From contig JANQRR010000017.1 in assembly GCA_028284465.1 (NCBI GenBank), positions 27,948-91,947 of the forward strand: 64,000 nt of DNA, in the 5' to 3' direction. This stretch comes from Gammaproteobacteria bacterium. GTDB lineage: Bacteria > Pseudomonadota > Gammaproteobacteria > JAJFKO01. The notes under the pieces were generated by a model. It had not been told where the DNA came from. It made no database searches and worked only from the letters and a program-made list of their open reading frames with translations. The position numbers and the translations under genes are program-made. This document shows, piece after piece, positions 7,488 to 29,167 of the stretch (position 1 is its first letter; each line of letters opens with the position of its first letter).

Positions 7488-7517
7488 CCTATAAAGAACT
7501 TCCATGCTCTTTATAGG
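7488..7517. terminator. Candidate bidirectional terminator hairpin between convergent LPS operon and gyrB-waaP
   Basis: Perfect 9-bp inverted repeat cctataaag/ctttatagg with 12-nt loop, T-rich flanks on both strands; AT-rich stem so weak. Confidence 0.3.
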
Positions 7518-7767: not shown

Positions 7768-11071
<3,304 letters not shown>

Positions 11072-11149: not shown

Positions 11150-12889
11150 TTAATCCAAATGTAGCGGTGGCAAGGTATCATTATTTTGTTTAGCACTTTT
11201 ATGTGAATTTGATTTTGCCAAATTTGAACGCAATGTTTGCCAAAAGTTTTTCCCAGACCAAACCTTATGTGGATCTTTGTAGAGTGCCTCATCTAACTCT
11301 GTCAACAATGCAGTTAGCTCTGGATTATCAAGCTGCTGACTAATATCTCCTAAATTACGAATTGATGCTTGTGGCCAATTAGCTTGTGCCCAAGCTAACA
11401 ACGCTTTGCGCAAAGCATGTTTATCATTCGCTAAGCTTGCTTTTTTAATGGCTGTTAAAAAAGTTTTTGCTGGTTGATGTTGGATTTTTGCTAATTTCGG
11501 CTCGCGTTGTCGCCACCAGAAAAACAATGTCGCTAACCATAAAATTAGCAAAATAACGGCAAGCCAAAGCCAACGATTATGTATGATTTCATGAGGGCCT
11601 TGGTTCGTTTGCTGGGTTGGGCCAGTAAGCTTCAATGCTGTTGGTAATGATGGCGATGGTTTTATCTTAGGAGCAGCTGGCGCTAAACGCTTGGCGCCAC
11701 TACTTGCTAGCGCTGGCAGGATAGTGACAGTTTTTGCCGGCAAGCTGGCAACGTGTGGTTTACGGGTTTGCGGATCCCACCAATGCACTTTAACCGCCGG
11801 CAAAGTAAATTTACCGGCTTTTTCAGGAATTAACGCAATTCGCTCAGTGCGTGTACCGATCACTCCTTGGGGGCCTGCATTATTTTGTAAGTACGGTTTA
11901 TCTGGATAGGTTTTAAATTCTGATAATGTTTGTTTAGCAACACTGGGCAGCTGACCCGCTGTCACGCCTACTCCAGAAATTATAATCGTACGGGTAACTG
12001 GCTCATTGACACGTAATCTATTTGGGCTTACTGACCAACCATCTTGGATCACCACGCGTTGTGCTGGTAGCCATTGTGAATAAGGCACGTTAGCCGGTTT
12101 ACGTTGCACATGTAATTTCAATGTTTTTGCTTTGATATGAATAGGCTTGCGTGCTCCAACGCCAAAAATCTGATCGATAGGTGATCGTGAGTTAGTATCG
12201 ATATATCCAGAAAATGTTGGCGGATGTATAGTAACTTTACCTGCATCTTGTGGGAAAATAACATAACGACGCTCAACAACTTGATAAAGCTGTTGATGGC
12301 GAGTAGTTTGATACATAATATCGCGCCCTAAACGTTTAATTAGTGCATTAGCAACTTTGGGCGGGGTTAAGGTTGGCTGTGCGATATTTACATCAAAATA
12401 AATCTGGACAGTATACATGACTTGGCTTTGCTGAAAAGGTGCTGTTGGTGTGACTTTTACATCTAAATAGATATCTTGCTTTTCACCAGCACTAACACTT
12501 CGTGAAGCCGCCTGTGGAGTCATTTTTTTTACTTCGATAGTGATCGGTTGCGTTGTTAACTTACCCAAACGAATCGCGGGTATAGTAATTTTGCCTGTAT
12601 GTCGTGCCGATAAGATAATATCCCAAGTTGTTTTCGTAGAAGACTTGCCATTAATATTTTTAAATTCGGTATTTTTTGCCGTCCCAAAAACTTGGAAATG
12701 TTTTTCCAATGGCAAAATATCTGGTTGGCCGTGAGCTTTGCCATGCAACGTAATAATTAATTGAAACGTTTCTCCAAATGCAATATTATTTCGGTCAACT
12801 CGCGCAGTTAAAACATTAGCTGTGCTTATTGAGGTTAATAAACCCCACAGAATAATGATGGCGAAAAACCTTCGTACTATTGTTATCAT
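11150..12889 (-). CDS. batD: BatD-like aerotolerance operon protein (signal peptide, C-terminal TM)
   Basis: 579 aa, N-terminal signal, C-terminal WLWLAVILLILWLATLFFWW anchor; last gene of moxR-DUF58-batABCD array. Confidence 0.7.
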   Translation of the reverse strand: MITIVRRFFAIIILWGLLTSISTANVLTARVDRNNIAFGETFQLIITLHGKAHGQPDILPLEKHFQVFGTAKNTEFKNINGKSSTKTTWDIILSARHTGKITIPAIRLGKLTTQPITIEVKKMTPQAASRSVSAGEKQDIYLDVKVTPTAPFQQSQVMYTVQIYFDVNIAQPTLTPPKVANALIKRLGRDIMYQTTRHQQLYQVVERRYVIFPQDAGKVTIHPPTFSGYIDTNSRSPIDQIFGVGARKPIHIKAKTLKLHVQRKPANVPYSQWLPAQRVVIQDGWSVSPNRLRVNEPVTRTIIISGVGVTAGQLPSVAKQTLSEFKTYPDKPYLQNNAGPQGVIGTRTERIALIPEKAGKFTLPAVKVHWWDPQTRKPHVASLPAKTVTILPALASSGAKRLAPAAPKIKPSPSLPTALKLTGPTQQTNQGPHEIIHNRWLWLAVILLILWLATLFFWWRQREPKLAKIQHQPAKTFLTAIKKASLANDKHALRKALLAWAQANWPQASIRNLGDISQQLDNPELTALLTELDEALYKDPHKVWSGKNFWQTLRSNLAKSNSHKSAKQNNDTLPPLHLD

Positions 12890-13764
12890 GATGTCTGCCT
12901 TCCTTTAATAATTCTACGTTGATAATCACGTAAAAATTTCTGCCGCAGCAAACCACCAGGATCATCAGGAATTTGATCCAACCATTGTTTTGCTTGCCAA
13001 TCTTTTAACCGTTGCGCACGACTCCGCTTAGGCTTTACTGGTTGTCGTTGCTGCTTTGGTTGTTGTTGTCGCTTTGCCTGTTGTTGTGCTTTGGGTTGTT
13101 GCTGATGTTGTTGCTGCGACTGATCATTACCTTGCTGTGCTGATTGTTTTTGCTGGTTTTGTTGCTGTGACTGATCATTACCTTGCTGTGCTGATTGTTT
13201 TTGCTGATTTTGTTGCTGCGACTGATTATTGCCTTGGTGTTGTGGCTGATTCTTACCTTGCTGTTGTGATTGTTGGCGCTGATTTTGATTTTGCTGTTGT
13301 GGTTTTTTTTGTTGTTGCTTTTGCTGCTGCTTTGGCTGCTGTTGTGGTGGTTGCTGCTGTTTATTTTGTTGTGCTAATAATTTTTTTAATAAATCTCGAT
13401 TATATTTCGCATCGGGATAATTCGCCTGTAATTTAAGTGCTTGTTCATAAGCATTAATCGCAGCACGATACTGGCCTAAATGCGCTAACGCATTGCCACG
13501 ATTGTAATGCGCAAGTGGGGTATTTTCATGCTTTAGCGTAGCTGCTGCTTGTTTATAATGTTTTGCACGATAATTAGCAACAGCACGCCAATCAGGTTGC
13601 TTAAACAATTGCGCTGCTTGTTTAGCATTACCTTTTTTTAATGCTTGTTGCGCTTGTTGATCTGGACGCAACCATAGATCGCGCCACGAAAAAGCAAAGC
13701 TTGTATTAATAAAAAATACACTTACCAAGCAACCAAGACATATATATCTATAATATTTCATCAT
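12886..13764 (-). CDS. batC: BatC-like TPR protein with long Gln-rich low-complexity C-terminal region
   Basis: TPR repeats (ANYRAKHYKQAA...ALAHLGQYRAAINAYEQALKL) then about 120 aa of Q/K/N repeats. Confidence 0.7.
   Translation of the reverse strand: MMKYYRYICLGCLVSVFFINTSFAFSWRDLWLRPDQQAQQALKKGNAKQAAQLFKQPDWRAVANYRAKHYKQAAATLKHENTPLAHYNRGNALAHLGQYRAAINAYEQALKLQANYPDAKYNRDLLKKLLAQQNKQQQPPQQQPKQQQKQQQKKPQQQNQNQRQQSQQQGKNQPQHQGNNQSQQQNQQKQSAQQGNDQSQQQNQQKQSAQQGNDQSQQQHQQQPKAQQQAKRQQQPKQQRQPVKPKRSRAQRLKDWQAKQWLDQIPDDPGGLLRQKFLRDYQRRIIKGRQTS
13111..13260. repeat. 51-nt tandem repeat (about 2.5 copies) inside batC encoding SAQQGNDQSQQQNQQKQ units
   Basis: Direct comparison: ttgctgcgactgatcattaccttgctgtgctgattgtttttgctggttttg repeated at 13111 and 13162, with a diverged third unit. 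Confidence 0.8.
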
Positions 13765-14765
13765 ATTTCTTCAAGCCAGCCACGACGAAATAGCAATAAC
13801 ATCAATAACAATATCGGTAGAATAAAATAACGCCCGCTGTCTTGCCAAATTTTAATATCATGTTGCGTTTGTTTAGCCTTTGCTAGCTGCTGCGTAAATA
13901 AAGAACCGGCTAAAATCCGTTTTAAATCACTATTATCATTAGTAAATTGCGCGTAAATACCGCCGCCTGCATTAGCTAATTTTTGTAATGACGCCTGTGC
14001 TAATTTGCTTACCACAATATTGCCTTTTTTATCTCGCAAAAAATTGCCTGAGCTTAATGGAATTGGCGCACCTTCTCGCGTGCCTACGCCAAGCACAGAA
14101 ATTTTATCACCACGCGCTTTAAGCTTTTTAGCTAATTTTATTGCCGCTGGATCAGCACGATTATAAGTAATTACTATAATATCACCTTTACGCACACCAG
14201 CTTGGGTTAATAATTTAGCCGCAAAGCTTAACGCCCAAGCCATATTGTTGCCAGACACTGGCATGATCTGTGGATCAAGCTCTGGGATCATTGCAGCAAT
14301 GGTATTATTATCTTGAGTGAGAGGCGATACTACGTAAGGCTCCCCACTAAAAGCAATTAAACCTGTTTGACCTTCATGAGTACGTTTTAACAAATCCAAC
14401 AATTTAAATTTTGCCCGTGTTAACCGTGATGGCGCAATATCTTGTGCATACATTGAAGGCGATAAATCAAATACAATGACTCGTGCAGCTTGCGAACGAT
14501 AACTGGGAATAGTAATTTGCTGCCAAGAAGGCCCCGCTAATGCGATGACAGCTAATATCCAAATTAACCCGAGCAATAACAATGGCCACAACAAACGTCG
14601 AGCACGCATATTGATTAATAAATGCGGCAATAAATGTGGATCACATACTTGTTGCCAATTATTAGCATGACGTAAGCGATACGCAATGCCAATCATTAAC
14701 AACGCTAAAGGTATTAAAGCGTAAAACCAATTTGGGCGTAAAAAATGTAAATTACTTAAGTCCAT
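13761..14765 (-). CDS. batB: BatB-like von Willebrand factor A domain membrane protein
   Basis: VIVFDLSPSMYAQD VWA MIDAS motif, N-terminal TM helices. Confidence 0.75.
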   Translation of the reverse strand: MDLSNLHFLRPNWFYALIPLALLMIGIAYRLRHANNWQQVCDPHLLPHLLINMRARRLLWPLLLLGLIWILAVIALAGPSWQQITIPSYRSQAARVIVFDLSPSMYAQDIAPSRLTRAKFKLLDLLKRTHEGQTGLIAFSGEPYVVSPLTQDNNTIAAMIPELDPQIMPVSGNNMAWALSFAAKLLTQAGVRKGDIIVITYNRADPAAIKLAKKLKARGDKISVLGVGTREGAPIPLSSGNFLRDKKGNIVVSKLAQASLQKLANAGGGIYAQFTNDNSDLKRILAGSLFTQQLAKAKQTQHDIKIWQDSGRYFILPILLLMLLLFRRGWLEEI

Positions 14766-15750
14766 ATGTGCGGATCACTCGGGTCATCATTAAAATAATT
14801 GACAATACTAATGCTAGCGCTAACGGCCAAGGATATAATGGCGTAATATTTCGAATTGTGGTACTTGCCGCAGCTACTGGTTCTATTTGATTAATTTGTT
14901 GATATGCTCGCGCTAAGGCACGGGTATTTTTAGCACGAAAATACATACCTCCTGTTATTTTCGCAATTTGTTTTAAAGTTTTTTCATCCAGATCTGCCGA
15001 TGGATTAGTGACTTGATTGCCTAATAATGTTGGCAATACCATCTGATCAGCGCCAATGCCAATAGTGTAGATCCGAATGCCGTATTGTTTTGCTAATTTT
15101 GCCGCAGCTAAGGGTGAGACATGCCCAGAATTATTAACACCATCTGTTAACAACACTAACACTCGGCTTTGTCTAGGACGTTTGCGTAAACGCTTTATTG
15201 CTAAACCGATTGCATCACCAATTGCCGTTTGTGACCCTGCTAAACCAATAGTGGCATCATTTAACATCGTTCGTACCGTTTTACGATCGAACGTTAATGG
15301 GGTTTGCAAATACGCGCGCGAACCAAATAGAATTAAACCCAACTGATCACCTTGACGATGACTAATAAATTCATCAGCAATATATTTCACAATATTTAAG
15401 CGATCAACTCGACGATGATTTAGTTGCATATCTGGAATTTGCATACTTCCAGAAAGATCAATCGCTAACATGATATCGCGACCTTGTCGTGGCAATTGTA
15501 TCGGTTTGCCTAACCAACGCGGCCCACTTGCGGCAAACACGAGCAATGCCCAAATTAAATAAATAACCCACGGTCGTAATCTGATTGTCAGCGAAGCCCA
15601 TGATGACGTTTTTGTAAGGTTAGTAATGGCAGTAAAAAAAGGGACTTTTAATGCGGCACCGGTTTTTACCTTGGCAGCAGGGACCAACCATCGTATTAAT
15701 AATGGCAACGGTAATAACAACAATATTGCTGGCCACGCAAGTTGAAACAT
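14752..15750 (-). CDS. batA: BatA-like von Willebrand factor A domain membrane protein
   Basis: MLAIDLSGSMQIPD...VLLTDGVNNSG VWA motifs. Confidence 0.75.
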   Translation of the reverse strand: MFQLAWPAILLLLPLPLLIRWLVPAAKVKTGAALKVPFFTAITNLTKTSSWASLTIRLRPWVIYLIWALLVFAASGPRWLGKPIQLPRQGRDIMLAIDLSGSMQIPDMQLNHRRVDRLNIVKYIADEFISHRQGDQLGLILFGSRAYLQTPLTFDRKTVRTMLNDATIGLAGSQTAIGDAIGLAIKRLRKRPRQSRVLVLLTDGVNNSGHVSPLAAAKLAKQYGIRIYTIGIGADQMVLPTLLGNQVTNPSADLDEKTLKQIAKITGGMYFRAKNTRALARAYQQINQIEPVAAASTTIRNITPLYPWPLALALVLSIILMMTRVIRTYGLK

Positions 15751-15751
15751 A

Positions 15752-16594
15752 TTACTGCTTGGTACCGTTTTCTTTATGCAAACTATTTAGTGCCCAGTCG
15801 TATTCACTATTAGAAATTGTTGTTATATCTTTGAGCTTAGCTAATAGCTTTGGATCAGCATATAATTTAATAAAAGCGATCACTCCAGCATCAGTGCCAC
15901 CAAAATCAGACATATACCAAATAAATATTTTTGACACTGTTAACGTGCCATCAGCGACGATCACACCGCGTGGATCGTTGATGTATTCACGCGTTGCTGC
16001 ATTTAACATAAGATCGATGTTCTTGCCGACAAACACTTGTTTTTGTAAATTAGGACAGCCATACGATGCACAATTGACTGCAAAATGAATACGAGGATCA
16101 TGCCATATGGGCCGCAAGATCCGATGTTCAATATCATTTAATGATAATGCCACACCCTTAACTTTGACTAATTTCATTTCCCACGGGCCACGCGTGAACA
16201 AAGAAATATTAGGAGAAATATCCATAATACTTGCGACAGGATAATGTTTTAAAATCAAATCTACGGTAGCAATATTATATAAATTAATCCAAAATGCCAT
16301 TTGCACATTACGATTGTAATTATCAATATTGATAGCTTCTAACTTTTTAATAAACTTACTAAGCTGAGCTTTTTCTGCAGCAGTCACCCCTGCATAATTT
16401 ACTAAATTAACACCTTCATCATTAGTGCTAACGTACTTATTTAGGAACTGTTGCCAAGGCTGATAATCAATAGTCTTTGTTGATAATGGATTAAACGCTA
16501 TCCATCGTGGCGATAATTCTTTTTGCGGTGCAGCAATAGCAGCACTAAGACAGAAAATCATAAAGATGCTAATTAATATGCGAGTTAATTTCAT
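15752..16594 (-). CDS. DUF547 family secreted protein inserted in the Bat operon (start chosen at MKLTRIL signal peptide)
   Basis: AFWINLYNIATV...HFAVNCASYGCP pattern characteristic of DUF547; signal peptide. Confidence 0.6.
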   Translation of the reverse strand: MKLTRILISIFMIFCLSAAIAAPQKELSPRWIAFNPLSTKTIDYQPWQQFLNKYVSTNDEGVNLVNYAGVTAAEKAQLSKFIKKLEAINIDNYNRNVQMAFWINLYNIATVDLILKHYPVASIMDISPNISLFTRGPWEMKLVKVKGVALSLNDIEHRILRPIWHDPRIHFAVNCASYGCPNLQKQVFVGKNIDLMLNAATREYINDPRGVIVADGTLTVSKIFIWYMSDFGGTDAGVIAFIKLYADPKLLAKLKDITTISNSEYDWALNSLHKENGTKQ

Positions 16595-16626
16595 AAATAC
16601 ATATCCTTTTTGTACTGGGCCCATAG

Positions 16627-17112
16627 TCAAGCCGCGCGGTGACGGCTATTTATTTTCAATGCATTTAACCATTGTCGCACTAATTGAAACAGTGGTGTTA
16701 ATTCGACTGTTGTTTGATTGCGATAAGGTTCGTCAATAAATACTCGCCCCCGACCATGAGCAAATTCATGAGTACCGCCAACGTCATCTAAAAATTGCAA
16801 CCATGCTGCTCCTTGTAAACCTGCTACTTGATCACGCGGAAAATATGCTAAAGAAACCCGCCGTAATAACATCGATAATTCCATGATAATACCATCTACA
16901 TCTTTATTTTGATAGCGATTTTCTAGCATTTGCACACACGCTAGTGCTTGTTTGCGTGCATGATTGCGACGCTGATATTTTCTCCACCATATGACTGCAC
17001 CACATATTATAAGCGCAATAATGATTACTAAAAACCACCAACCTGGCGCCGGCGGCCAAATAGATATCGCTTTAGGCAAATGAATATCACGTAATTGAGA
17101 CAAACTATCCAT
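16627..17112 (-). CDS. DUF4381-like small membrane protein of MoxR/Bat operons
   Basis: LPKAISIWPPAPGWWFLVIIIALII motif. Confidence 0.6.
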   Translation of the reverse strand: MDSLSQLRDIHLPKAISIWPPAPGWWFLVIIIALIICGAVIWWRKYQRRNHARKQALACVQMLENRYQNKDVDGIIMELSMLLRRVSLAYFPRDQVAGLQGAAWLQFLDDVGGTHEFAHGRGRVFIDEPYRNQTTVELTPLFQLVRQWLNALKINSRHRAA

Positions 17113-18016
17113 GGCGTAACTCTCTTAAGTGTATTCGCAACTTTTCGGTAATATCATCATTGGTGACGATTGACCATAATGGGATCCGTAATTTGCGTAA
17201 TTGTTGTTGCAAGTTTTGCTGTTGTTTCGCAAAATGATCGCGATAAGCTTGGCAAAAAGCCTTATTGCGCGTGTCTAACGCTGCTAAATTTGCACCATTA
17301 CTTACTAAATAACGATCTGCAGCTGGTGGTTCAATTTCTAATGGATCAATGATCTGAATTGCAATAACTTGCTGATGTAAATAAAGTTGATTTAAGGCTT
17401 GCTCAAGCGCTGGATTCAAAGTGTTGAAATCACTAATAATAAATACTGTGCTAGCAGGTCGCGCAAGCAAATCTAATCTTTGTAACGCTTTAGCTAAGCC
17501 ATCTGGATCAGTTGTCGGGGCAGGTGATTGTGAATACTTTGTTAATGTATGTAATAAGTGTAAGGCACTTTGCGCGCGTGAACGAGGCCGACATTGTGTT
17601 AACTGATCATCGGCAAAAACAATGCCGCCAACTCGATCACCTTGCGCCACACCCGCCCATGCTAGCAAGCTAGCAACTTTAGCCGCAATCACTGATTTAA
17701 ACGCTACCTTAGTGCCAAAAAACATGCTGTGACTAAAGTCAGTGACAATAAATAAATTATGTTCGCGTTCTTCACGATAAATTTTAGTATGCGCCGTACC
17801 AGTACGTGCGGTAACTCGCCAATCCATGGTACGAATATCATCGCCAGGTTGATAGGCGCGCACTTCATCAAAATCAATCCCACGCCCGCGAAAACACGAA
17901 ATAATATCACCACTGTGAGAAGCCATGGTACGTTTAGTTCGTGCTAATTGCAACTTGCGTGCTGCATGTCGCAAATTAATTAGCTCAGCTAAACTAACGT
18001 TAACGCCTGTGCTCAT
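17105..18016 (-). CDS. DUF58 (VWA-like) protein partner of MoxR
   Basis: Position immediately after moxR; DUF58-like motifs; classic MoxR-DUF58 pair. Confidence 0.75.
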   Translation of the reverse strand: MSTGVNVSLAELINLRHAARKLQLARTKRTMASHSGDIISCFRGRGIDFDEVRAYQPGDDIRTMDWRVTARTGTAHTKIYREEREHNLFIVTDFSHSMFFGTKVAFKSVIAAKVASLLAWAGVAQGDRVGGIVFADDQLTQCRPRSRAQSALHLLHTLTKYSQSPAPTTDPDGLAKALQRLDLLARPASTVFIISDFNTLNPALEQALNQLYLHQQVIAIQIIDPLEIEPPAADRYLVSNGANLAALDTRNKAFCQAYRDHFAKQQQNLQQQLRKLRIPLWSIVTNDDITEKLRIHLRELRHG

Positions 18017-18020
18017 AAAA

Positions 18021-19016
18021 TTATGGTATCGCTACTTGATTTAATAATTCATCGATAAAATCATCGGTGCTGATCGCTTGCGCTTGTGCTTCATAAGTTA
18101 AAATAATCCGATGTCGTAGCACATCGTGGATCACTGCATGAATATCTTCAGGTGACACATAATCACGATCGTGCAACCATGCATGCGCACGAGCGCAACG
18201 ATCTAAAGCGATAGTACCACGTGGGCTAGCACCAAAACGTACTTGGCTGGCAAGCTCGTCACTATATGCCTTAGCATCTCGTGTAGTAGTGATCAGTCGC
18301 ACCATATATTCAGTTAATGCAGCACTCACATGTAATTGCAACACTTGCTGACGAGCATCAAATAAAATAGTTTGTGGGATCATCGCTTGAGGCTTAACAA
18401 CTTGTTCATAACCTTGTAAAGCTTCTGAATGATTTAATGCTAAGATTTTTTGTTCTGCATCTAGCGGTGGATAATTAATACAAACATACATTAAAAATCG
18501 ATCCAATTGTGCTTCTGGCAATGGATATGTACCTTCTTGCTCAATCGGGTTTTGCGTCGCCATGACTAAAAATAATTGCGGCAGTGAATAGGTTTTTTGC
18601 CCAATCGTCACTTGTCGCTCTGCCATCGCTTCTAACAATGCTGATTGTACTTTCGCTGGAGCACGATTAATTTCATCCGCTAAAATTAAATTATTGAAAA
18701 TTGGCCCTTGTTGAAATTCAAAGCTGCCATTTTGTGGACGATAAATATCAGTTCCAGTAATATCTCCTGGCAACAGATCAGGAGTAAATTGAATACGATG
18801 AAAACTACCTTCAATTGCTACTGCCAATTCTTTAATAGCTTTCGTTTTCGCTAACCCCGGCGCACCTTCGACAAGCAAATGGCCATCGCATAATAATGCT
18901 ATTAGCATGCGTTTAATTAAATCTTGCTGACCGATAATACGCTCATTGAGATGAGCTTGTAATTGATTAAGCGCAGTATACGCTTCACTTGATTGAGAAA
19001 CTTCGACTTGTTGCAT
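18021..19016 (-). CDS. moxR: MoxR-family AAA+ ATPase
   Basis: Walker A GAPGLAKT, LADEINRAPAKVQSALLEAMAERQVT; first codon of the track ORF reads TGG, so start moved to the in-frame ATG. Confidence 0.85.
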   Translation of the reverse strand: MQQVEVSQSSEAYTALNQLQAHLNERIIGQQDLIKRMLIALLCDGHLLVEGAPGLAKTKAIKELAVAIEGSFHRIQFTPDLLPGDITGTDIYRPQNGSFEFQQGPIFNNLILADEINRAPAKVQSALLEAMAERQVTIGQKTYSLPQLFLVMATQNPIEQEGTYPLPEAQLDRFLMYVCINYPPLDAEQKILALNHSEALQGYEQVVKPQAMIPQTILFDARQQVLQLHVSAALTEYMVRLITTTRDAKAYSDELASQVRFGASPRGTIALDRCARAHAWLHDRDYVSPEDIHAVIHDVLRHRIILTYEAQAQAISTDDFIDELLNQVAIP

Positions 19017-19120
19017 TGTCAATTAGCTCCAAATTTAGCTATAGCGGTATTGCTAATGCTAACCTGAAATAAGGAGCCTGACAAATGTCTCACTCAAAAA
19101 TATTCTCTTCGCCAGATTTT

Positions 19121-19900
19121 TTAAGCTAGGCGATCAACATACGCTTGCCAGCCAGCTTGGCGAAATTGTTGCGCTGCTGCTAAAGGATCATCGGCTTGAT
19201 AAATTGCACGACCAACAATAATCACATCACTACCGTTACGGGTAATAACACTTTCCGGAGTATTATATTGTTGACCGATTGCATCAGTATTTTGCTGTAA
19301 TTGCACGCCTGGAGTTAAATGAATGAAACCTGGCTCATCAATGAGTTTCTGTTGCGCAATAAAACCGATAACAAAATCTGCGTGTTGCTTAGCCAAAGCG
19401 ACACTCGCTTGGGTATAATGATCTGTGAAAAAATTATCAGCCGAACTCATTTGCGCTAATAACAACAAGCCGCGTTGCTTTGCTAAACCTACTTGTTTTA
19501 AGCCTGCAATAATTCCCGGGCCTGGAAGAATATGTGCATTAATTATGTCTGCCCATGCCGCGATATGATAAATCCCGTGTTGATATTGATGTTTAACCGT
19601 ATTGCCAATATCAGCAAATTTGCGATCTTCAAAAATTAAGAACTGATGTCGCTTTGCTAATTCGACTAACTGATCAACTAGATCTTGATCGAAATCTTCA
19701 ACGATATCGATATGTGTTTTAAGCACACATAATTCTGGACCAAGTTGATGGGCTAAGGTTAATAATTGTTGTTTACTCGTCACATCAGCAGCTAATGCAA
19801 GATTTGTTTGTTTTTCCGCAATAATAGTTAATAACTTTTTTGCTAATGGATGTTGCGCTAATGTTGCGCGTTGTTCATAGGTTAAATGCGATGTCTTCAT
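19121..19900 (-). CDS. pyrF: Orotidine 5'-phosphate decarboxylase, eukaryote-like (UMP synthase C-domain type)
   Basis: KTHIDI...FLIFEDRKFADIGNTVKHQY...LLLLAQMSS...FVIGFIAQ nearly identical in motif order to yeast URA3. Confidence 0.85.
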   Translation of the reverse strand: MKTSHLTYEQRATLAQHPLAKKLLTIIAEKQTNLALAADVTSKQQLLTLAHQLGPELCVLKTHIDIVEDFDQDLVDQLVELAKRHQFLIFEDRKFADIGNTVKHQYQHGIYHIAAWADIINAHILPGPGIIAGLKQVGLAKQRGLLLLAQMSSADNFFTDHYTQASVALAKQHADFVIGFIAQQKLIDEPGFIHLTPGVQLQQNTDAIGQQYNTPESVITRNGSDVIIVGRAIYQADDPLAAAQQFRQAGWQAYVDRLA

Positions 19901-19902
19901 TT

Positions 19903-20490
19903 TTAAGTAAAGCTCGCAATTGCAGCACGTTCTTCGTCATTTAATTCAACTTGTCGCGGCAATAATTCCAATACTTCTGGCAATGTCATAACCGCATGCA
20001 AATGATAACCCTTATTAACAATATTTTCATTGCCACCTTGGCAACGATCAATAAAAACTACAATATCCTTTACCGCAACGCCTGTTGTTGTTAATAATTC
20101 ACATGTTGTTAATACACTGCCACCACTAGTGATCACATCTTCAACCACTAGACATGTTTGTCCTTTATCAAAGACACCCTCAACCATTTTTTTAGTGCCG
20201 TAATCTTTTTGCTCTTTACGCACTAATAACATTGGCATGTTGTGTTCGAGAGACATACAAGTTGCAATCGGCAATGCAGTGTAAGGAACTCCGCAAATTA
20301 AATCTTTATTAATGCTTGCTACTTGCGCCCACATCGCTGTGGCGATATCACGTAACAAATCTGGATAAGAGACGATTTGGCGCAGATCAATATATACTGG
20401 TGAAGTCGCGCCACTTTTTAAAGTAAAGGTCCCAAACTTTATACCGCCAATTTTATAAAGGCGCTCTAATAAGCGTTTTTTGTCAACCAT
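19903..20490 (-). CDS. pyrE: Orotate phosphoribosyltransferase, eukaryote-like (UMP synthase N-domain type)
   Basis: IKFGTFTLKSGATSPVYIDLRQIVSYPDLL matches the UMPS OPRT domain signature; stop 2 nt before pyrF start. Confidence 0.8.
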   Translation of the reverse strand: MVDKKRLLERLYKIGGIKFGTFTLKSGATSPVYIDLRQIVSYPDLLRDIATAMWAQVASINKDLICGVPYTALPIATCMSLEHNMPMLLVRKEQKDYGTKKMVEGVFDKGQTCLVVEDVITSGGSVLTTCELLTTTGVAVKDIVVFIDRCQGGNENIVNKGYHLHAVMTLPEVLELLPRQVELNDEERAAIASFT

Positions 20491-20569
20491 GATAATCTTT
20501 CAGCTCCTTAATCAAATTTCAGCACAATTGTAACACATTTCAAAAATAACTATGCAAACCAAAAATAGT

Positions 20570-20598
20570 TTGACTTATGTTTCTAACTCTGGTATGAT
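20570..20598 (+). promoter_or_regulatory. Sigma70-type promoter for the carA operon (TTGACT-17 nt-TATGAT)
   Basis: Read directly: ttgact at 20570-20575, tatgat at 20593-20598, about 45 nt upstream of the carA start. Confidence 0.5.
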
Positions 20599-20648
20599 TT
20601 CGCAGTTTTATCTAAATTTCGCTGAAGAGGTATGAACCCACAGTGGCC

Positions 20649-21692
20649 ATGAACGCGGCAAAACTGGTGCTAAAAACCGGAGAGTGTTTTCACGGCTTAT
20701 CTCCCGTTTGGGTAAACAATCCTATTGGTGGTGAAATTGTCTTTAACACTAGCATGGTCGGTTATGTTGAAGCCTTAACTGATCCCTCTTACGCTGGACA
20801 AATTCTTACATTCACCTATCCTTTAATCGGTAACTACGGCGTACCAACAGGTGATGCTTGGCAATCGAAAAAAATCCAAGCTCGCGGCATGGTAGTTTCA
20901 GAACTTGCCGACTTTCACGCTCATCCTGATGCTAAATATTCATTATATGAATGGTGTGAGCAACAAGGCTTACCAATAATCACCGGTGTTGACACTCGCG
21001 CTGTGACTAAAGTGCTACGTCATCAAGGTGTTGTGGCAGGTGCAATCACTCCAGCTGATCAACCATTTACAAACTTCCCAAACATCAATGACACTAACCT
21101 TGTTGCTGATGTGAGCATCACCGCACCACTGGAATATGGCAGTGGCGATAAAACCGTGATCTTAGTAGACTGCGGTATGAAAACCAGCATCCTTAAATGC
21201 TTACAACAATATCCCATCAAAATTAAACGTGTACCTTATAATTATGATTTCACCAGTGAACCCTATGACGGCGTGCTCATCTCTAATGGTCCTGGCGATC
21301 CACAAATGTGTACTGAGACGATCAAAATTTTACAAGCTGCATTAACTAATGCCAAACCAATGTTCGGGATTTGCTTAGGATCACAATTGATGGCATTAGC
21401 GATTGGCGCGCAAACTTACAAACTTGGCTTTGGTCATCGCGCCCAAAATCACCCTTGCATGGATTTAACCAGCGGCCGTTGTTATTTAACGTCACAAAAC
21501 CACGGCTACAGCATTAAAGAAGACACTTTGCCAAACGAATGGAAGGTTTGGTTTAAGCATTTAAATGACGATACGGTACAAGGGATCAGGCATCAGACAT
21601 TGCCACATTTTGCTGTGCAATTTCATCCGGAAGCAATGCCTGGGCCTGTGGATACGCAATGGATATTTGATAAATTTTACCAAACATTATGA
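20649..21692 (+). CDS. carA: Carbamoyl-phosphate synthase small (glutaminase) subunit
   Basis: VFNTSMVGYVEALTDPSYAGQILTFTYPLIGNYG, catalytic GICLGSQ; track start is GTG at 20643. Confidence 0.9.
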   Translation: MNAAKLVLKTGECFHGLSPVWVNNPIGGEIVFNTSMVGYVEALTDPSYAGQILTFTYPLIGNYGVPTGDAWQSKKIQARGMVVSELADFHAHPDAKYSLYEWCEQQGLPIITGVDTRAVTKVLRHQGVVAGAITPADQPFTNFPNINDTNLVADVSITAPLEYGSGDKTVILVDCGMKTSILKCLQQYPIKIKRVPYNYDFTSEPYDGVLISNGPGDPQMCTETIKILQAALTNAKPMFGICLGSQLMALAIGAQTYKLGFGHRAQNHPCMDLTSGRCYLTSQNHGYSIKEDTLPNEWKVWFKHLNDDTVQGIRHQTLPHFAVQFHPEAMPGPVDTQWIFDKFYQTL

Positions 21693-24600
21693 ATACATTA
21701 GCACTTAAAAAAGTATTATTACTCGGTTCAGGTGGACTGCGGATCGGTCAAGCAGGCGAATTTGATTATTCTGGTTCACAAGCAATAAAAGCATTAAAAG
21801 AAGAAAACATTGAAGTGGTGTTAGTAAATCCTAACATCGCGACCGTCCAAACTGATCCTAACATGGCAGATAAAGTGTATTTACAACCACTGAATTCTGA
21901 CATTGTCACTAATATTATTGAAAAAGAACAACCGGATGCGATTTTGCTAGGTTTCGGCGGACAAACTGCGTTAAACCTCGGCTTGAAGCTAGCTGATCTT
22001 GGTGTGTTGGCTAAACACAATGTTAAAGTGCTTGGTACTTCAACAAAGAGTATTAAGCTTGCTGAAGATCGCGCTTTATTCAAACAAGAATTGCAAACCA
22101 TCGAAATTAAAACACCCGTAAGCGTATGTGTTGATACGGTTGAAGATGCTTTAACTGCTGCTAAAGAGATCGGCTTCCCGGTAATGGTACGTTCAGGTTT
22201 CACTCTAGGTGGCATGGGTTCTGGGATCATCCATAATCCGCAAGATTTACGCAAGCTTGCGCAAGCGACGTTAAGCGGCGCGCCACATATTCTGGTTGAA
22301 GAATATTTATGTGGCTGGAGTGAATTTGAATATGAAATTATACGTGATGTTGATGGCAATACGTTAACAATTTGTAATATGGAAAACATGGATCCGATGG
22401 GCATTCACACGGGTGAAAGTATTGTCGTTGCTCCATCACAATCATTAACTAACGAACAATATCATTTCTTACGTAAAATCTCGTTAGATGTGGCCAATCA
22501 CTTTGGCATTATTGGCGAATGCAATATTCAATTCGCTTTTAACCTTAACACTGGCGATTACCGCGTTATTGAAATTAATCCGCGTTTATCGCGCTCCAGT
22601 GCTCTAGCTTCTAAAGCAACCGGTTATCCATTAGCATTTGTTGCCACTAAACTTGCGCTGGGTTATCGCTTACATGAAATTAAAAATTCGATCACGCAAA
22701 AAACCTGTGCTTTCTTCGAGCCTGCGCTAGATTATATCGTAGTGAAAATTCCACGCTGGGATACTCATAAATTAAGAGCAGCGGAGCGTTTCATCGGCAC
22801 CGAAATGAAAAGTGTTGGCGAAGTGATGGCGATTGGCCGCACTTTTCCTGAAGCATTGCAAAAAGCTGTCGGCATGTTAAATATTGGCGCGAATGATCTA
22901 ACCGATTATCCATATCCGATTGATAATCCTACCAATGAAATTGCGCATGCGACCGATCGACGATTATTTGCTTTATACAATTTCTTTAAAAATGGTGGCT
23001 CGACTGAAGAAGCACACACTTTATCAAAAATTAATTTATGGTTCTTGCACCATGTACACTCGATTGCCATGCTTGCTAAGCAATTAAACGAACAAACCCT
23101 TGATCAAAATCTCTTACTCGCAGCAAAACGCTTAGGTTGCACTGATAAAAGTATTGCTAAAATCACTCAACAAACTGAAGCTGATATTCGTCAATTACGC
23201 TTACAACATGGTATTACGCCATACATTAAACAAATTGATACATTAGCAGGCGAATTTGACGCGCAAACCAATTATTTATATTTAACTTATCATGGTTGTG
23301 AGCATGATTTAGCTCCATCGTCACAACCAGCCGTTATTGTGTTAGGCTCGGGGCCTTACAGTATTGGCTCCTCGGTTGAATTTGATTGGTGTGGAGTTAA
23401 CACATCACGCACTTTACGTCGCTTAGGTGAGCAATCCATTATTATTAATTCTAATCCTGAAACAGTTTCTACTGATTACGATGAATCTGATCGCTTGTAC
23501 TTCGAACAATTAAGCTTTGAGCGCGTGCAAGACATTGCAGATTTTGAAAACCTTAAAGGCATTATCGTTTCTGTCGGTGGCCAAGTCGCTAATAATTTAG
23601 CGCTCCCACTGCATGAAGCTGGCTATCCTATTTTAGGCACTGCGGCACAATCAATTAACCAAGCTGAAAATCGTCAATTATTTTCTTCTCTATTAAATAA
23701 ACTCCATATCGATCAACCCGCATGGAGTACTGCCGACAGCATTGACAACGCACAAGAATTTGCTGCACAAGTTGGTTATCCCGTATTAATCCGTCCGTCA
23801 TTTGTATTATCGGGCGCAGCGATGAATATTGTGTTCAACGATACCGAAATGCAACAATACTTAGAAGAAGCCTCACTGGTGTCACCTGATCATCCGGTGG
23901 TTATTTCTAAATTCATTCAAAACGCTAAAGAATTACAAATCGACGGGGTTGCTGATCATGGCAATGTGATCGTCGAAGCAATCTCTGAACATATTGAAAA
24001 TGCTGGCGTACATTCTGGTGATGCAACTATAGTGATGCCACCGCAACGGCTTTATCTCGAAACAATTCGCAACACTAAAAAGATCATGCGTAAAATTGTT
24101 AAAGCTTTAAATATTACAGGGCCATTTAACATTCAATTTTTAGCGAAAGATAATAAAGTACGCGTGATTGAATGTAACTTACGTGCCTCACGATCGTTTC
24201 CATTTGCTTCAAAAGTCGCAAATCATAATTTCATTGCCGTTTCTACTGAAATTATGTTAGATCGTTATAAGCCGGCGGCGTATGAAACCTTAGAATTAGA
24301 TTACGTCGGCGTTAAATCACCACAATTTTCCTATAATCGCCTCAAAGGCGCTAATCCAGTTGCGCATGTTGAAATGGCATCAACCGGTGAAGTTGCTTGT
24401 TTGGGCGATAATTTATTACAAGCTTTTTATCACTCTTGGCAAGCGACAGAAAAATTTATCGACCGCAAAAAAATCTTTTTGAGCATTGGTGGCGATAAGA
24501 AATCTACCTTATTAAACTATATTAAAAAATTAGCTGAACTCGATTGGGAGATCTTTACTACCGGCGGCACACATGATTTTCTGGCGGTAAATGGCGTTGC

Positions 24601-24886
24601 TTCACTGCATGTATTTAAAGCCAGCAAAAACATTGAACCTAGCGTCGCTAGCATTGTCGCACAGCGCAAAGTGGATTTGATCATCAATATCCCTAACAAA
24701 AACCGTAATTATAATCATCAACAAACATCTGATGGTTACCTGATCCGCCGTTTAGCTATCGATCATAACATTCCACTGATCACTAATTTACAAAGTGCAT
24801 TACTGACTTTGCAGTGTTTGACTGAATTAGATCCTAACGATTTAGCGATTAAATCGTGGCAAGAGTTTATAGGTGAAAATGCATGA
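21689..24886 (+). CDS. carB: Carbamoyl-phosphate synthase large subunit
   Basis: 1065 aa, duplicated ATP-grasp halves, MGS-like C-terminal domain. Confidence 0.95.
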   Translation: MNTLALKKVLLLGSGGLRIGQAGEFDYSGSQAIKALKEENIEVVLVNPNIATVQTDPNMADKVYLQPLNSDIVTNIIEKEQPDAILLGFGGQTALNLGLKLADLGVLAKHNVKVLGTSTKSIKLAEDRALFKQELQTIEIKTPVSVCVDTVEDALTAAKEIGFPVMVRSGFTLGGMGSGIIHNPQDLRKLAQATLSGAPHILVEEYLCGWSEFEYEIIRDVDGNTLTICNMENMDPMGIHTGESIVVAPSQSLTNEQYHFLRKISLDVANHFGIIGECNIQFAFNLNTGDYRVIEINPRLSRSSALASKATGYPLAFVATKLALGYRLHEIKNSITQKTCAFFEPALDYIVVKIPRWDTHKLRAAERFIGTEMKSVGEVMAIGRTFPEALQKAVGMLNIGANDLTDYPYPIDNPTNEIAHATDRRLFALYNFFKNGGSTEEAHTLSKINLWFLHHVHSIAMLAKQLNEQTLDQNLLLAAKRLGCTDKSIAKITQQTEADIRQLRLQHGITPYIKQIDTLAGEFDAQTNYLYLTYHGCEHDLAPSSQPAVIVLGSGPYSIGSSVEFDWCGVNTSRTLRRLGEQSIIINSNPETVSTDYDESDRLYFEQLSFERVQDIADFENLKGIIVSVGGQVANNLALPLHEAGYPILGTAAQSINQAENRQLFSSLLNKLHIDQPAWSTADSIDNAQEFAAQVGYPVLIRPSFVLSGAAMNIVFNDTEMQQYLEEASLVSPDHPVVISKFIQNAKELQIDGVADHGNVIVEAISEHIENAGVHSGDATIVMPPQRLYLETIRNTKKIMRKIVKALNITGPFNIQFLAKDNKVRVIECNLRASRSFPFASKVANHNFIAVSTEIMLDRYKPAAYETLELDYVGVKSPQFSYNRLKGANPVAHVEMASTGEVACLGDNLLQAFYHSWQATEKFIDRKKIFLSIGGDKKSTLLNYIKKLAELDWEIFTTGGTHDFLAVNGVASLHVFKASKNIEPSVASIVAQRKVDLIINIPNKNRNYNHQQTSDGYLIRRLAIDHNIPLITNLQSALLTLQCLTELDPNDLAIKSWQEFIGENA

Positions 24887-25812
24887 AAAACCCGTTCTAT
24901 TCCCGTGATTTAGTTTCCATCGCTGATTTTAATCTAACCGAAATCGAATTCTTATTAAATTATGCTGCTCAAATTAAACAAGACAAAATTGTGAAACCAG
25001 CAAGCGGAAAATTATTAGCGAGCTGTTTTTTCGAACCGTCGACACGTACGCGTTTATCATTTGAATCATCAATGTTAAAACTCGGTGGCCAAATCATTGG
25101 CTTTGCAGATCCGACTAATACGTCAGAGCAAAAAGGCGAATCACTATACGATTCGATGAAAGTGATCTCACCTTATGCGGATATAATTGTGCTACGTCAC
25201 CCACGTGAAGGTGCAGCCAGATTAGCTGCACAAGCTAGCGATAAGCCAGTGATCAATGCCGGTGATGGTGCTAACAAACACCCAACGCAAACTTTGTTAG
25301 ACTTATTCACCATTAAAGAATGCCAGGGCAACATTGACAATTTAAACATTGCACTAGTTGGTGATTTAAAATATAGCCGCACGATTCATTCTTTAGTGCG
25401 TGCTTGTGCGCTATATAAAACACGCTTCTTTTTCATTTGCCCGAACACTTTAATGATGCCTGAACATATCTGCCACTTTTTAAAAACCCAAGGCGTGCGT
25501 TTTTCATTTCATCAAAGCATTGAAGAAGTCATTAAGCACCTTGATATTATTTATATGACTCGTTTACAGAAAGAACGTTTTCAAACTCACGAATACGCTA
25601 TGATCCAGCAACAATTTACTTTGCAGCCAAATATGCTGGTTGATGCCAAAAAGAATTTAAAAATTTTACATCCACTGCCGCGGATCAAAGAAATTGACCC
25701 GACAATTGATGACACACCATATGCTTATTATTTTCAGCAAGCGGCTAATGCTTTGCCTGTGCGCCAAGCTATTTTAAGTGCAATTTTAAATGAGGACCTT
25801 ACGCATGGCTGA
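24883..25812 (+). CDS. pyrB: Aspartate carbamoyltransferase catalytic subunit
   Basis: STRTRLSFE...HPTQ...HPLP motifs. Confidence 0.9.
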   Translation: MKNPFYSRDLVSIADFNLTEIEFLLNYAAQIKQDKIVKPASGKLLASCFFEPSTRTRLSFESSMLKLGGQIIGFADPTNTSEQKGESLYDSMKVISPYADIIVLRHPREGAARLAAQASDKPVINAGDGANKHPTQTLLDLFTIKECQGNIDNLNIALVGDLKYSRTIHSLVRACALYKTRFFFICPNTLMMPEHICHFLKTQGVRFSFHQSIEEVIKHLDIIYMTRLQKERFQTHEYAMIQQQFTLQPNMLVDAKKNLKILHPLPRIKEIDPTIDDTPYAYYFQQAANALPVRQAILSAILNEDLTHG

Positions 25813-26251
25813 AATGTTATCGGTAACTGCAATTAATAATGGCATGGTGATTGATCACATCCCCGCAGGCCAAGCGATAAATATTGCGCAACTATTACAA
25901 CTGTCTAAACATCGTAAACGTATTACTTTAGGATTAAATTTATCAAGCAACACGATGGGTTTAAAAGATTTAATTAAAATTGAAAATCGCCAACTAACCG
26001 CCGAAGAATTAGCCCAGGTTGCAGTGTTTGCGCCTCAAGGTATTGTTAATATCATTGAGAACTATAATGTGATTGAGAAAATTAAATTACAACCACCAAC
26101 AAGTATTAGCAAAATTTTTACTTGCCCGAATCAATTATGTATTACCCACACAGAACCTGTTAATAGCGATTTTTATTTAGTGCATCAAAACCAAACGATC
26201 CAATTAACATGCAAATATTGCGAACGCAACTTCACACAAGGGTCAACATAG
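25805..26251 (+). CDS. pyrI: Aspartate carbamoyltransferase regulatory subunit
   Basis: GMVIDHIPAG...ITLGLNLSS...KIEN... and C-terminal CPNQLCITH...CKYCE zinc domain, collinear with E. coli PyrI. Confidence 0.85.
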   Translation: MAEMLSVTAINNGMVIDHIPAGQAINIAQLLQLSKHRKRITLGLNLSSNTMGLKDLIKIENRQLTAEELAQVAVFAPQGIVNIIENYNVIEKIKLQPPTSISKIFTCPNQLCITHTEPVNSDFYLVHQNQTIQLTCKYCERNFTQGST

Positions 26252-26258
26252 GATTATT

Positions 26259-27479
26259 ATGATCAATATCAAAAATGCTAACACTATCACTGGCGAACGT
26301 AAAAATCTCACCATCGATAGTGAACAAGACATCACTATTGATGCTAGTCATTTGACAATATTCCCTGGATTAATCGATCCACACGTTCATTTTCGTACTC
26401 CCGGTGAAGAACATAAAGAAAATTGGTGCAGTGCTGCAGCAGCTACTATTAAAGGCGGCTATACCACTGTTTGTGACATGCCCAATAATATTCCTGCGTG
26501 TGTTACCGCCGAGCGTTTACGCGATAAAGTTTCATTAATCGAACAACAATTAAAACAAGTTGATATTCCACTTAAATACCGTTTGTATTTTGGCGCGGAT
26601 AAAAATAACTTTGATCAGATCCATAAAATCAAAAATGATGTCGTCGGTATAAAAGTGTTTATGGGTTCTAGCACCGGCGATTTATTAATGGATGATGATA
26701 GTAGTTTACATGCGATTTTTGCCTTGGCTGCAGCCCATGACTTGCTAGTTGCCGTGCACGCTGAAGATGAAGATATGATCCGTGAACGCACTAAACAATT
26801 TGCTAGTGAAAAATCTCATCACATTCATTCATGCATTCGCACACCGGAAGTTGCCGCTGCTGCTGTGGCTAAAGCGACTAGCTTAGCGAAAATGTATGGC
26901 ACCCGTTTATATATATTGCACGTTAGTACCACCAATGAATTAGAGTTAATCGCTAAAGCCAAACAAGAACATGTACAAGTTTACGCTGAAACCACGCCGC
27001 ATCATTTATTTCTAAATACTAATGATTATCAAGCATTAGCTGGCAAAGCCCAAATGAACCCGCCATTGCGATCGCCTGAGCATCAAGATGCTTTATTCTC
27101 AGCGATTCATACCGGGCTTATTGACACTATTGGCTCGGATCACGCACCGCATTTATTAACAGAAAAAAATAAACCTTATGGCCAATGCCCATCTGGTGTG
27201 CCTGGGGTTGAAACTAACTTACCATTATTACTCAACGCACATCATCAAGGTTTATTATCATTAGAAAAGATCATCTCGTTAACGTGTGAACGTCCGCGCG
27301 AAATGCTTAATTTACCTGCCAATGATGACATCGTGTTAGTTGATTTGAATCATCAAAAAATGGTCAATGATGCTGAGCTGAAAACCAAAGCTGGTTGGTC
27401 GCCATTTCATGGTCGCACCTTAACGGGCTGGCCAATGATAGTGATTGCTAATGGCAAATATTATGATTTGGAAAATTAG
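26259..27479 (+). CDS. pyrC: Dihydroorotase (type I, allantoinase-like)
   Basis: PGLIDPHVHFRTPG...metal-binding His/Asp pattern; position after pyrBI. Confidence 0.8.
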   Translation: MINIKNANTITGERKNLTIDSEQDITIDASHLTIFPGLIDPHVHFRTPGEEHKENWCSAAAATIKGGYTTVCDMPNNIPACVTAERLRDKVSLIEQQLKQVDIPLKYRLYFGADKNNFDQIHKIKNDVVGIKVFMGSSTGDLLMDDDSSLHAIFALAAAHDLLVAVHAEDEDMIRERTKQFASEKSHHIHSCIRTPEVAAAAVAKATSLAKMYGTRLYILHVSTTNELELIAKAKQEHVQVYAETTPHHLFLNTNDYQALAGKAQMNPPLRSPEHQDALFSAIHTGLIDTIGSDHAPHLLTEKNKPYGQCPSGVPGVETNLPLLLNAHHQGLLSLEKIISLTCERPREMLNLPANDDIVLVDLNHQKMVNDAELKTKAGWSPFHGRTLTGWPMIVIANGKYYDLEN

Positions 27480-28495: not shown

Positions 28496-29044
28496 TTATT
28501 GTTGGATCCCCAATTGTTGATCGGTAAGTGGAATACCATAATTTCGATAATTATCGACAGCAATACATAAACCTTTTTCTTGCACCGTCATTTTACTATG
28601 ATCAGCATTTTTGCAATGATTTTCAACTTGTTGAATACGCTCTTGACGACGTTGCGCAATCGGTTTATTCAATTCTTCAGCTGTTGGCTGCTTAGGTGCG
28701 GGAAAAGTTGTCTTTGGTGCTGTCGTAGTTGTTGCTGTAGTTGGCGTCGTTGGTGTATTTACTGAAGGTGTTGCAACTGCTGGTTGTTGTGTTTGTGTTT
28801 GAGTTTGATTTTGTTGTGGTCTAATTGGCTGCTTGAGTTTTTGCTCTTGACGTTTTACATCTTGGGTAAAATTCTGATCGATATCACTTTGTGGATTAAT
28901 CTGATAAGCAGTAGATGCATTAGGATCAGTAGTAGAGTTAGTATTAGTGCTAGTGTTAATGTTGGCATTGGCATTTAAGCTTGCTAGAGCCAAAAAAATT
29001 GCAATTATTTGTACAAAAATAATTTTTGTGTGTTTTATTGCCAT
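28496..29044 (-). CDS. Secreted Thr/Pro/Gln-rich protein with C-terminal Cys-containing domain (start at MAIKHTK signal peptide)
   Basis: Signal peptide IIFVQIIAIFLALASLNANA, low-complexity TPTTPTTATTTTAPKTT linker, C-terminal CKNADHSKMTVQEKGLCIAVDNY. Confidence 0.5.
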   Translation of the reverse strand: MAIKHTKIIFVQIIAIFLALASLNANANINTSTNTNSTTDPNASTAYQINPQSDIDQNFTQDVKRQEQKLKQPIRPQQNQTQTQTQQPAVATPSVNTPTTPTTATTTTAPKTTFPAPKQPTAEELNKPIAQRRQERIQQVENHCKNADHSKMTVQEKGLCIAVDNYRNYGIPLTDQQLGIQQ

Positions 29045-29167
29045 GAGTGCTCTCCCTAATAATTTGCCCTCGTTATGAATTATATAATGAATTGTTAAAA
29101 CAGGTATTGTCAACTTTTATCTTGCTTATATAATACGTTATGCTTAGCTCAATAAAAGGAAATAATT

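Follow-up and report, generated by a model that had tools for sequence, protein, structure and literature searches.

We analysed a stretch of 64,000 nucleotides (hereafter the window) from a gammaproteobacterial genome (GenBank assembly GCA_028284465.1, contig JANQRR010000017.1), in which the genes pyrE and pyrF, encoding orotate phosphoribosyltransferase (OPRTase) and orotidine-5'-phosphate decarboxylase (ODCase), lie side by side. By sequence, the two proteins fall into one subfamily with the corresponding domains of eukaryotic UMP synthase (UMPS), and they stand apart from the ordinary proteobacterial types. Members of this subfamily are not found in eukaryotes alone; they are common in Patescibacteria, in Chlamydiia and in a set of Gammaproteobacteria. 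The pair is very probably a working representative of this known bacterial subfamily, with a function predicted from sequence, and it probably displaced the ordinary gammaproteobacterial genes.

Both genes are on the reverse strand (Table 1). A first-pass annotation, made from the letters of the window, had described them as adjacent but separate genes 2 nt apart, and this is what the open reading frames (ORFs) show. Read on the coding strand, the sequence at the junction is ...GCG AGC TTT ACT TAA AA ATG AAG ACA..., in which the TAA stop codon of pyrE is followed by 2 nt and by the ATG start codon of pyrF. Because the reading frame of pyrF differs from that of pyrE, the split is not an artefact of a single-base read-through. 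The gap of 2 nt is too short to hold a ribosome-binding site for pyrF alone, which makes translational coupling likely, probably by termination and reinitiation. The order of the genes is that of the domains of eukaryotic UMPS, as the first-pass annotation had it, and the break between them lies where UMPS has its linker. Presumably about 17 residues of that linker are missing from the window pair, as we read the alignment against the human linker sequence. The base composition of the genes is the same as that of gyrB and moxR, with GC contents and third-position GC contents (GC3) of 0.39 and 0.31 for pyrE and of 0.39 and 0.27 for pyrF.

The human UMPS domains were the best matches of both proteins in a search of the Protein Data Bank (PDB). 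PyrF scored 313 bits (E=1e-92) against human UMPS and 245 bits against yeast URA3, as opposed to 40 bits against PyrF from Coxiella burnetii (3tr2) and 29 bits against PyrF from E. coli. PyrE scored 188 bits against the OPRTase domain of human UMPS (2wns), 129 bits against Leishmania UMPS (3qw4), 56 bits against E. coli PyrE and 46 bits against yeast URA5 (2pry). In BLASTP comparisons, PyrF has sequence identities of 54% to the human, 53% to the spinach, 48% to the yeast and 24% to the E. coli protein, the URA3 query being 100% identical to 3gdk. The identities of PyrE are 51% to human, 49% to spinach and 29% to E. coli, the comparison with yeast being not applicable. PyrF matches Pfam PF00215 (OMPdecase) over profile positions 1-221 of 221 with 219.2 bits (cutoff 27) and TIGR01740 with 200.7 bits (cutoff 92.3), and it falls below the cutoff of the model for the ordinary type, NF001273 (PRK00230), with 66.8 against 193 bits. 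PyrE, which Pfam assigns to the phosphoribosyltransferase domain, passes the UMPS-type model NF010382 with 228.3 bits (cutoff 208, profile positions 11-198 of 210) and falls below the ordinary-type model NF001729 (PRK00455), with 97.3 against 245 bits. Since NF010382 is a curated NCBIfam equivalog, this type of PyrE is an established bacterial family. Judged by these scores, the eukaryote-type affinity of the two proteins is far beyond chance. The earlier assignments of the ODCase to the URA3/UMPS branch and of the OPRTase to the UMPS type are thus borne out, and neither protein was placed inside the ordinary gammaproteobacterial clades of PyrE and PyrF.

The residues expected of active enzymes are conserved. 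In yeast ODCase, K59, D91, K93 and D96 form the catalytic Lys-Asp-Lys-Asp array, and R235 binds phosphate. The equivalent residues of the window PyrF, K61, D92, K94, D97 and R231, show no variation when aligned with the human, yeast, E. coli and two bacterial enzymes. In PyrE, the PRPP (phosphoribosyl pyrophosphate) motif VEDVITSG, which includes D118, T121 and G123, the flexible-loop segment R91-K92-E93-x-K95 and the N-terminal K25 of the FxLKSG motif are conserved with the human and E. coli enzymes, and K25, R91-K92-E93, K95, D118, T121, G123 and D148-R149 are identical throughout the alignment of human, bacterial and E. coli sequences. The motifs quoted in the first-pass annotation are present, namely FEDRKFADIGNTV and LLLLAQMSS in PyrF and ...KFGTFTLKSGATSPVYIDLR in PyrE, with one correction: the residue that precedes KFG in PyrE is isoleucine (IKFG), and the FKFG given there is the human form.

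Both proteins have their nearest relatives in bacteria. There were 6037 ODCase homologs at E<=1e-10; the best 120 of these are 61-66% identical to PyrF, nearly all stand-alone and about 255 aa long, and the named ones at the top come from Kaiserbacteria, Magasanikbacteria, the 'Patescibacteria group' and metagenome-assembled genomes (MAGs) of Gammaproteobacteria. The OPRTase homologs numbered 1703, of which the best are stand-alone proteins of about 200 aa with identities of 50-63%, some of them on contigs of 0.4-2.4 Mb. Relatives in Patescibacteria, Chlamydiia and Gammaproteobacteria MAGs are 59-66% identical to PyrF and 50-63% identical to PyrE, and the bacterial PyrF homologs are nearer than any eukaryote seen (<=54%, BLASTP). 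Among GTDB-representative genomes, the ODCase occurs in Magasanikbacteria, in Parcubacteria, in two Gammaproteobacteria MAGs and in one Chlamydiales MAG. Clustering at 50% identity gave 537 clusters with E<=1e-30; five of 20 clusters with representatives at this level were named, and these were Spinacia, a Chlamydiia MAG, Trichoplax, Salpingoeca and ticks.

The surroundings of the genes are also shared across bacterial phyla. A Gammaproteobacteria MAG (L009) has the colinear arrangement pyrE-pyrF-carA-carB-pyrB-pyrI-pyrC, with CarB and PyrB 66% and 58% identical to those of the window, a Chlamydiales MAG (L010) has carB-pyrC-pyrE-pyrF, and Magasanikbacteria have pyrB-pyrI-pyrC...pyrF. The PyrE proteins of L009 and L010 likewise pass NF010382. 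The spacing of pyrE and pyrF varies, from a gap of 149 nt in L009 to an overlap in L010. The closest relative of PyrF (P0006, GCA_021773175.1, 64% identity) has no adjacent pyrE and adjoins MoxR-DUF58-DUF4381, as pyrF does in the window. This common neighbourhood suggests inheritance within a gammaproteobacterial lineage.

Relatives of the pair are found fused, split and mixed, and within bacteria the genes pass back and forth between the split and the fused state. Two independent Parcubacteria MAGs encode PyrK-PyrE-PyrF in one uninterrupted ORF (L005 4477..6762, 761 aa; L011 4465..>6555), in which a PyrK part made of NAD_binding_1 and DHODB Fe-S domains is followed by the OPRTase and the ODCase; a related Patescibacteria-type contig carries separate genes in the order pyrD-pyrK-pyrE-pyrF. 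A fused PyrE-PyrF gene followed by an overlapping pyrD is located on a contig that also encodes BamD, RNase E and QueA (P0263), and the same fused gene with pyrD is found in a Gammaproteobacteria MAG (P0088); on these proteobacterial-looking contigs (L018 8001..10323; L015 1..2242), pyrD follows directly on the fused gene. Three sediment-metagenome contigs also carry a fused gene (P0015). A protein of 799 aa from an unknown taxon (P0250) is a PyrD-OPRTase-ODCase triple fusion. In other genomes, a UMPS-type PyrF is located beside a PRK00455-like PyrE (L007 5337..6777) or a pyrE_Therm-like PyrE (L016 9371..10768), or has no adjacent pyrE (L014 10001..10777). Because UMPS-type PyrF occurs with other types of PyrE or alone, the pair is not a conserved 'split UMPS' unit, and its two members have separable histories. 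The first-pass annotation had read the locus as an ancient inter-domain transfer or as a lineage that kept the progenitor of the eukaryotic fusion. The kinship with eukaryotic UMPS on which that reading was built holds; the special standing of the locus does not, since its nearest relatives are bacterial and show every arrangement (split, fused and mixed), and the window lineage is therefore no special 'progenitor'.

Neighbour-joining (NJ) trees with Kimura distances and bootstrap were made from 166 ODCase sequences and from 50 concatenated OPRTase and ODCase sequences. The concatenated set included a Patescibacteria sequence (Patesc_L016) that was later found to have a non-UMPS PyrE, and it adds noise. 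In these trees the bacterial sequences group together, with two gammaproteobacterial ones at the base, and the support is 1-23%. The fused sequences around the bacterial group include confirmed eukaryotes, namely spinach, Trichoplax, Salpingoeca, ticks and two contigs with eukaryotic gene content. The data are compatible with an inter-domain transfer at some time, the direction of which the NJ trees do not resolve. Given this low support for bacterial monophyly and the unresolved backbone, we claim no direction of transfer.

Two directions have to be weighed. An ancient transfer of a fused UMPS gene from a eukaryote to a bacterium, followed by fission at the linker and by spread among symbiont-like or intracellular lineages (Chlamydiia, Patescibacteria and Legionellales-like Gammaproteobacteria), is a serious possibility that we hold tentatively. 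It agrees with the split lying exactly in the UMPS linker, with a gene order equal to the domain order, and with the largely host-associated character of the carrier lineages named so far. The bacterial ODCase identities also fall within the range of eukaryotic diversity: the human and the plant protein are 55% and 58% identical to that of Patescibacteria, and human ODCase is 52% identical to the yeast and 47% to the choanoflagellate protein. In NJ trees rooted on E. coli, the bacterial group lies in the crown, among fused sequences that include the UMPS of metazoans, plants and choanoflagellates; however, all backbone bootstraps are about 0-40% and the root is an outgroup of about 24% identity. 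If a fused gene had been transferred, a UMPS-type PyrF next to a non-UMPS PyrE (L007, L016) or alone (L014) would be unexpected, and the PyrK-PyrE-PyrF fusion of Patescibacteria arose from the bacterial operon order pyrD-pyrK-pyrE-pyrF.

The opposite direction, in which the UMPS-type pyrE-pyrF operon was originally bacterial and an adjacent pair gave rise to the eukaryotic genes, which then fused, appears possible but rather unlikely. It is the 'progenitor' idea of the first-pass annotation, applied to the whole bacterial family instead of the window lineage. The family has very many and diverse members in bacteria, its genes sit in bacterial operons with partners found only in bacteria (pyrI and pyrK), and transitions from adjacent genes to fusions are seen directly within bacteria. 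CarA and CarB of the cluster are likewise nearer human CPS1 than E. coli CarAB (Table 1). Fusion of these genes has happened more than once, according to a passage in PMC2705460 that cites Makiuchi et al. and reports independent pyrE/pyrF fusions, in both orders, in eukaryotes and cyanobacteria. On the other side, eukaryotes do not come out nested within bacteria in the tree; the bacterial clade appears derived in the rooted NJ trees, without support, and the window lineage is not basal with any support. Moreover, the patchy distribution in bacteria and the fact that Coxiella and E. coli have the ordinary type point to a secondary spread by horizontal transfer among bacteria.

A recent and direct acquisition by the window bacterium from a eukaryotic host, such as an amoeba, in the manner of the 'eukaryotic-like' genes of Legionella, is highly improbable. 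The affinity of GyrB is partly to Legionellales, and the 'eukaryotic motifs' flagged in Candidatus Rickettsiella viridis, a member of Legionellales, include one of ODCase (PMC6016236). Against such an event, bacterial homologs are nearer to the window PyrF than any eukaryote seen, the genes do not differ from the host background in GC or GC3, the cluster shows synteny with those of other bacterial phyla, and the pyrF-MoxR neighbourhood is common to a relative. Eukaryotic contamination, a chimeric assembly or a fused gene falsely split by sequencing error can be rejected: the window proteins are singletons at 90% identity, but pyrE-pyrF is flanked on both sides by bacterial operons of the same composition, at the junction an intact TAA is followed by 2 nt and by an out-of-frame ATG, the independent assemblies L009 and L010 also have split pairs, and the protein lengths match those of hundreds of stand-alone homologs.

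We thus return to a working pair of the bacterial UMPS-type subfamily as the best account of the locus. PyrE would join orotate and PRPP to give orotidine 5'-monophosphate (OMP), and PyrF would decarboxylate OMP to UMP. The two genes would be co-transcribed, and coupled translation would keep the two enzymes stoichiometric, doing without a covalent link what the fusion does in eukaryotes. Most likely, the place of the ordinary gammaproteobacterial pyrE and pyrF was taken by UMPS-type genes (xenologous displacement), which may have arrived by transfer among bacteria or by inheritance from an earlier gammaproteobacterial recipient. The fully host-like composition of the genes suggests that the displacement took place long ago. 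Since PyrF of Coxiella scores only 40 bits, the ordinary type has been retained in at least one Legionellales genome, and this fits a displacement in the window lineage.

Several points weigh against this account. The monophyly of the bacterial sequences is weakly supported in both NJ trees. A clear Shine-Dalgarno sequence or promoter for the pyrE-pyrF pair was sought and none was identified. The choice between vertical inheritance and transfer within Gammaproteobacteria rests on one syntenic relative, and the assemblies are MAG-like. Enzymatic activity, translational coupling, displacement and its timing are what we infer from sequence features. Finally, the window covers 64 kb of the genome, and a second, ordinary pyrE or pyrF may be present elsewhere.

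Comparison with known systems places the window pair more precisely. Human UMPS (2wns for the OPRTase; 2qcc and 2jgy for the ODCase) has the same order of OPRTase and ODCase and the same catalytic residues, with the identities given above extending over 182 aa for PyrE and 255 aa for PyrF. However, it is one polypeptide with a linker, whereas the window has two ORFs separated by a stop codon, 2 nt and a start codon, with a change of frame. The locus is thus not a UMPS gene, though the same two reactions are expected; it lacks the single ORF of a bifunctional UMP synthase and has both domains of the UMPS subfamily. Yeast URA3 (1dqw, 3gdk) is a stand-alone ODCase of the same branch as the window PyrF, with the same catalytic residues. 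The score of yeast URA5 against the window PyrE is below that of E. coli PyrE, so yeast mixes the two types, while the window has both enzymes of the UMPS type. The E. coli PyrE and PyrF and the Coxiella PyrF share reactions, folds and invariant catalytic residues with the window enzymes; the identities to the E. coli proteins are low and, in E. coli, pyrE and pyrF are unlinked. Fusions in the reverse order, ODCase-OPRTase, are known from cyanobacteria, kinetoplastids and stramenopiles (NF004034/PRK05500), and Leishmania UMPS (3qw4) is one of them. They differ from the split window pair in domain order and in being fused, and their OPRTase module is related, the window PyrE scoring 129 bits against 3qw4 and 166 bits against NF004034, the latter far under the cutoff of 656. 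The family to which the window genes belong consists of bacterial PRK13809-type PyrE and UMPS/URA3-like PyrF, which are stand-alone, often adjacent and often part of a car/pyr cluster; in the window this cluster has a divergent layout, pyrEF against carAB-pyrBIC, unlike the colinear one of L009.

Such genes have been touched upon in the literature. Among gut-microbial homologs of human UMPS, 22 were split and none was full-length (PMC12547972), and pyrE of Chlamydia has been annotated as 'UMP synthase' (PMC3091639). In the open-access literature we found peripheral mentions only and no paper that analyses UMPS-type pyrE/pyrF in bacteria, nor one that charts the distribution of the UMPS-type pair over Patescibacteria, Chlamydiia and Gammaproteobacteria or describes a PyrK-PyrE-PyrF fusion.

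The pyrE-pyrF pair is transcribed divergently from carA-carB-pyrB-pyrI-pyrC. The clustering of the de novo pyrimidine pathway, with the exception of pyrD, had been noticed in the first-pass annotation and is confirmed: all five genes are present, and pyrD gave no tblastn match anywhere in the window. By bit score, CarA and CarB are both nearer human CPS1 than E. coli CarA and CarB. The best PDB match of PyrB is 3lxm (369 bits), followed by the E. coli chains (350-358 bits) and human CAD (266 bits), and that of PyrC is 2gwn (219 bits). With four of the seven cluster proteins eukaryote-like, PyrB and PyrI enterobacterial-like and PyrC of the long type I form, the cluster is a mosaic. An Rfam search of the window returned no rRNA, tRNA or other family; PyrR or another riboswitch-like leader was considered and rejected, since there was no Rfam match.

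Table 1 Features of the pyr cluster and its surroundings, in window coordinates.
Feature	Position	Strand	Description	Size or match
pyrF	19121..19900	-	orotidine-5'-phosphate decarboxylase, UMPS/URA3-like branch of subfamily 1	259 aa
pyrE stop / pyrF start junction	19898..19905	-	TAA-AA-ATG	sequence
pyrE	19903..20490	-	orotate phosphoribosyltransferase, UMPS-type (NF010382/PRK13809) subfamily	195 aa
Divergent intergenic region	20491..20642	.	between pyrE (-) and carA (+); sequence	152 bp
Sigma-70-like site for carA	20570..20598		TTGACT-17-TATGAT	consensus match only
carA	20643..21692	+		TIGR01368 415 bits; human CPS1 285 bits, E. coli CarA 227 bits
carB	21689..24886	+		TIGR01369 1391 bits; human CPS1 1089 bits, E. 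coli CarB 790 bits
pyrB	24883..25812	+	aspartate carbamoyltransferase catalytic chain (enterobacterial-like)	TIGR00670 360 bits
pyrI	25790..26251	+	aspartate carbamoyltransferase regulatory chain	TIGR00240 168 bits; E. coli PyrI 132 bits
pyrC	26259..27479	+	dihydroorotase, long type I (TIGR00857) form	TIGR00857 305 bits, cutoff 279
phoB	596..1318		PhoB	
Lipopolysaccharide (LPS) inner-core cluster	1759..8625		RfaF and RfaC heptosyltransferases, two glycosyltransferases, RfaP heptose kinase, Kdo/WaaP-family kinase-like protein	kinase-like protein 474 aa
gyrB ORF	8603..11047	-	TTG start	814 aa
BatD/TPR/VWA/VWA/DUF547/DUF4381/DUF58/MoxR-AAA operon	11150..19022	-	directly downstream of pyrF	
ORF between hemH and cfa	28496..29113	-	no NCBIfam match	205 aa
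ATPase_2/AAA_14 protein	33778..34911	-	mostly archaeal family; adjoins hemD-hemX-hemY	377 aa
Giant ORF	36312..42926	+	no Pfam family at E<1e-5	2204 aa

The rest of the window is that of a gammaproteobacterium, with hemX/hemY, LPS-core heptosyltransferases and a long-form GyrB as host markers. The best match of GyrB is 75% identical, and identities of about 70% are found to Legionellales MAGs, Candidatus Coxiella mudrowiae and Legionella spp. and equally to Microbulbifer, Kangiellaceae and others. On these identities, the host would be a deep uncultured gammaproteobacterial lineage of uncertain order. The homologs of GyrB, including an identical protein, are about 805 aa long, so the true start of gyrB is probably about nine codons downstream of the TTG. 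The operon directly downstream of pyrF is one that we take to be akin to the aerotolerance 'Bat' operon. The stretch that holds the giant ORF is low in GC, at 0.29-0.34 compared with about 0.39 elsewhere, and the gene itself has a GC content of 0.318 and a GC3 of 0.225; it has the look of a giant orphan or effector-like gene gained by horizontal transfer.

For annotation, the pyrE-pyrF locus is an ordinary case, as both genes are already called by standard models; its value is evolutionary. Here is a gammaproteobacterium in which the last two pyrimidine enzymes, and possibly the carbamoyl-phosphate synthetase (CPSase), are of a eukaryote-like subfamily. Its case advises caution, in that 'eukaryote-like' best matches to model organisms are no proof of a recent inter-domain transfer. 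The UMPS-type genes travel within a recognisable pyr cluster and have given rise to several bacterial fusions, PyrE-PyrF, PyrK-PyrE-PyrF and PyrD-PyrE-PyrF. Since the cluster is common to Gammaproteobacteria, Chlamydiia and Patescibacteria, and since its CarA, CarB, PyrE and PyrF are nearer the eukaryotic than the E. coli enzymes, the cluster could descend from a bacterial donor of both the CPSase and the OPRTase and ODCase genes to the eukaryotic stem, a speculative idea that we consider a long shot. Were it true, adjacent pyrE-pyrF pairs would represent the state of UMP synthase before fusion, and a single operon of bacterial origin would account for several parts of the 'mosaic' pyrimidine pathway of eukaryotes. 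The locus and its relatives thus set up a test of the origin of eukaryotic UMP synthase.

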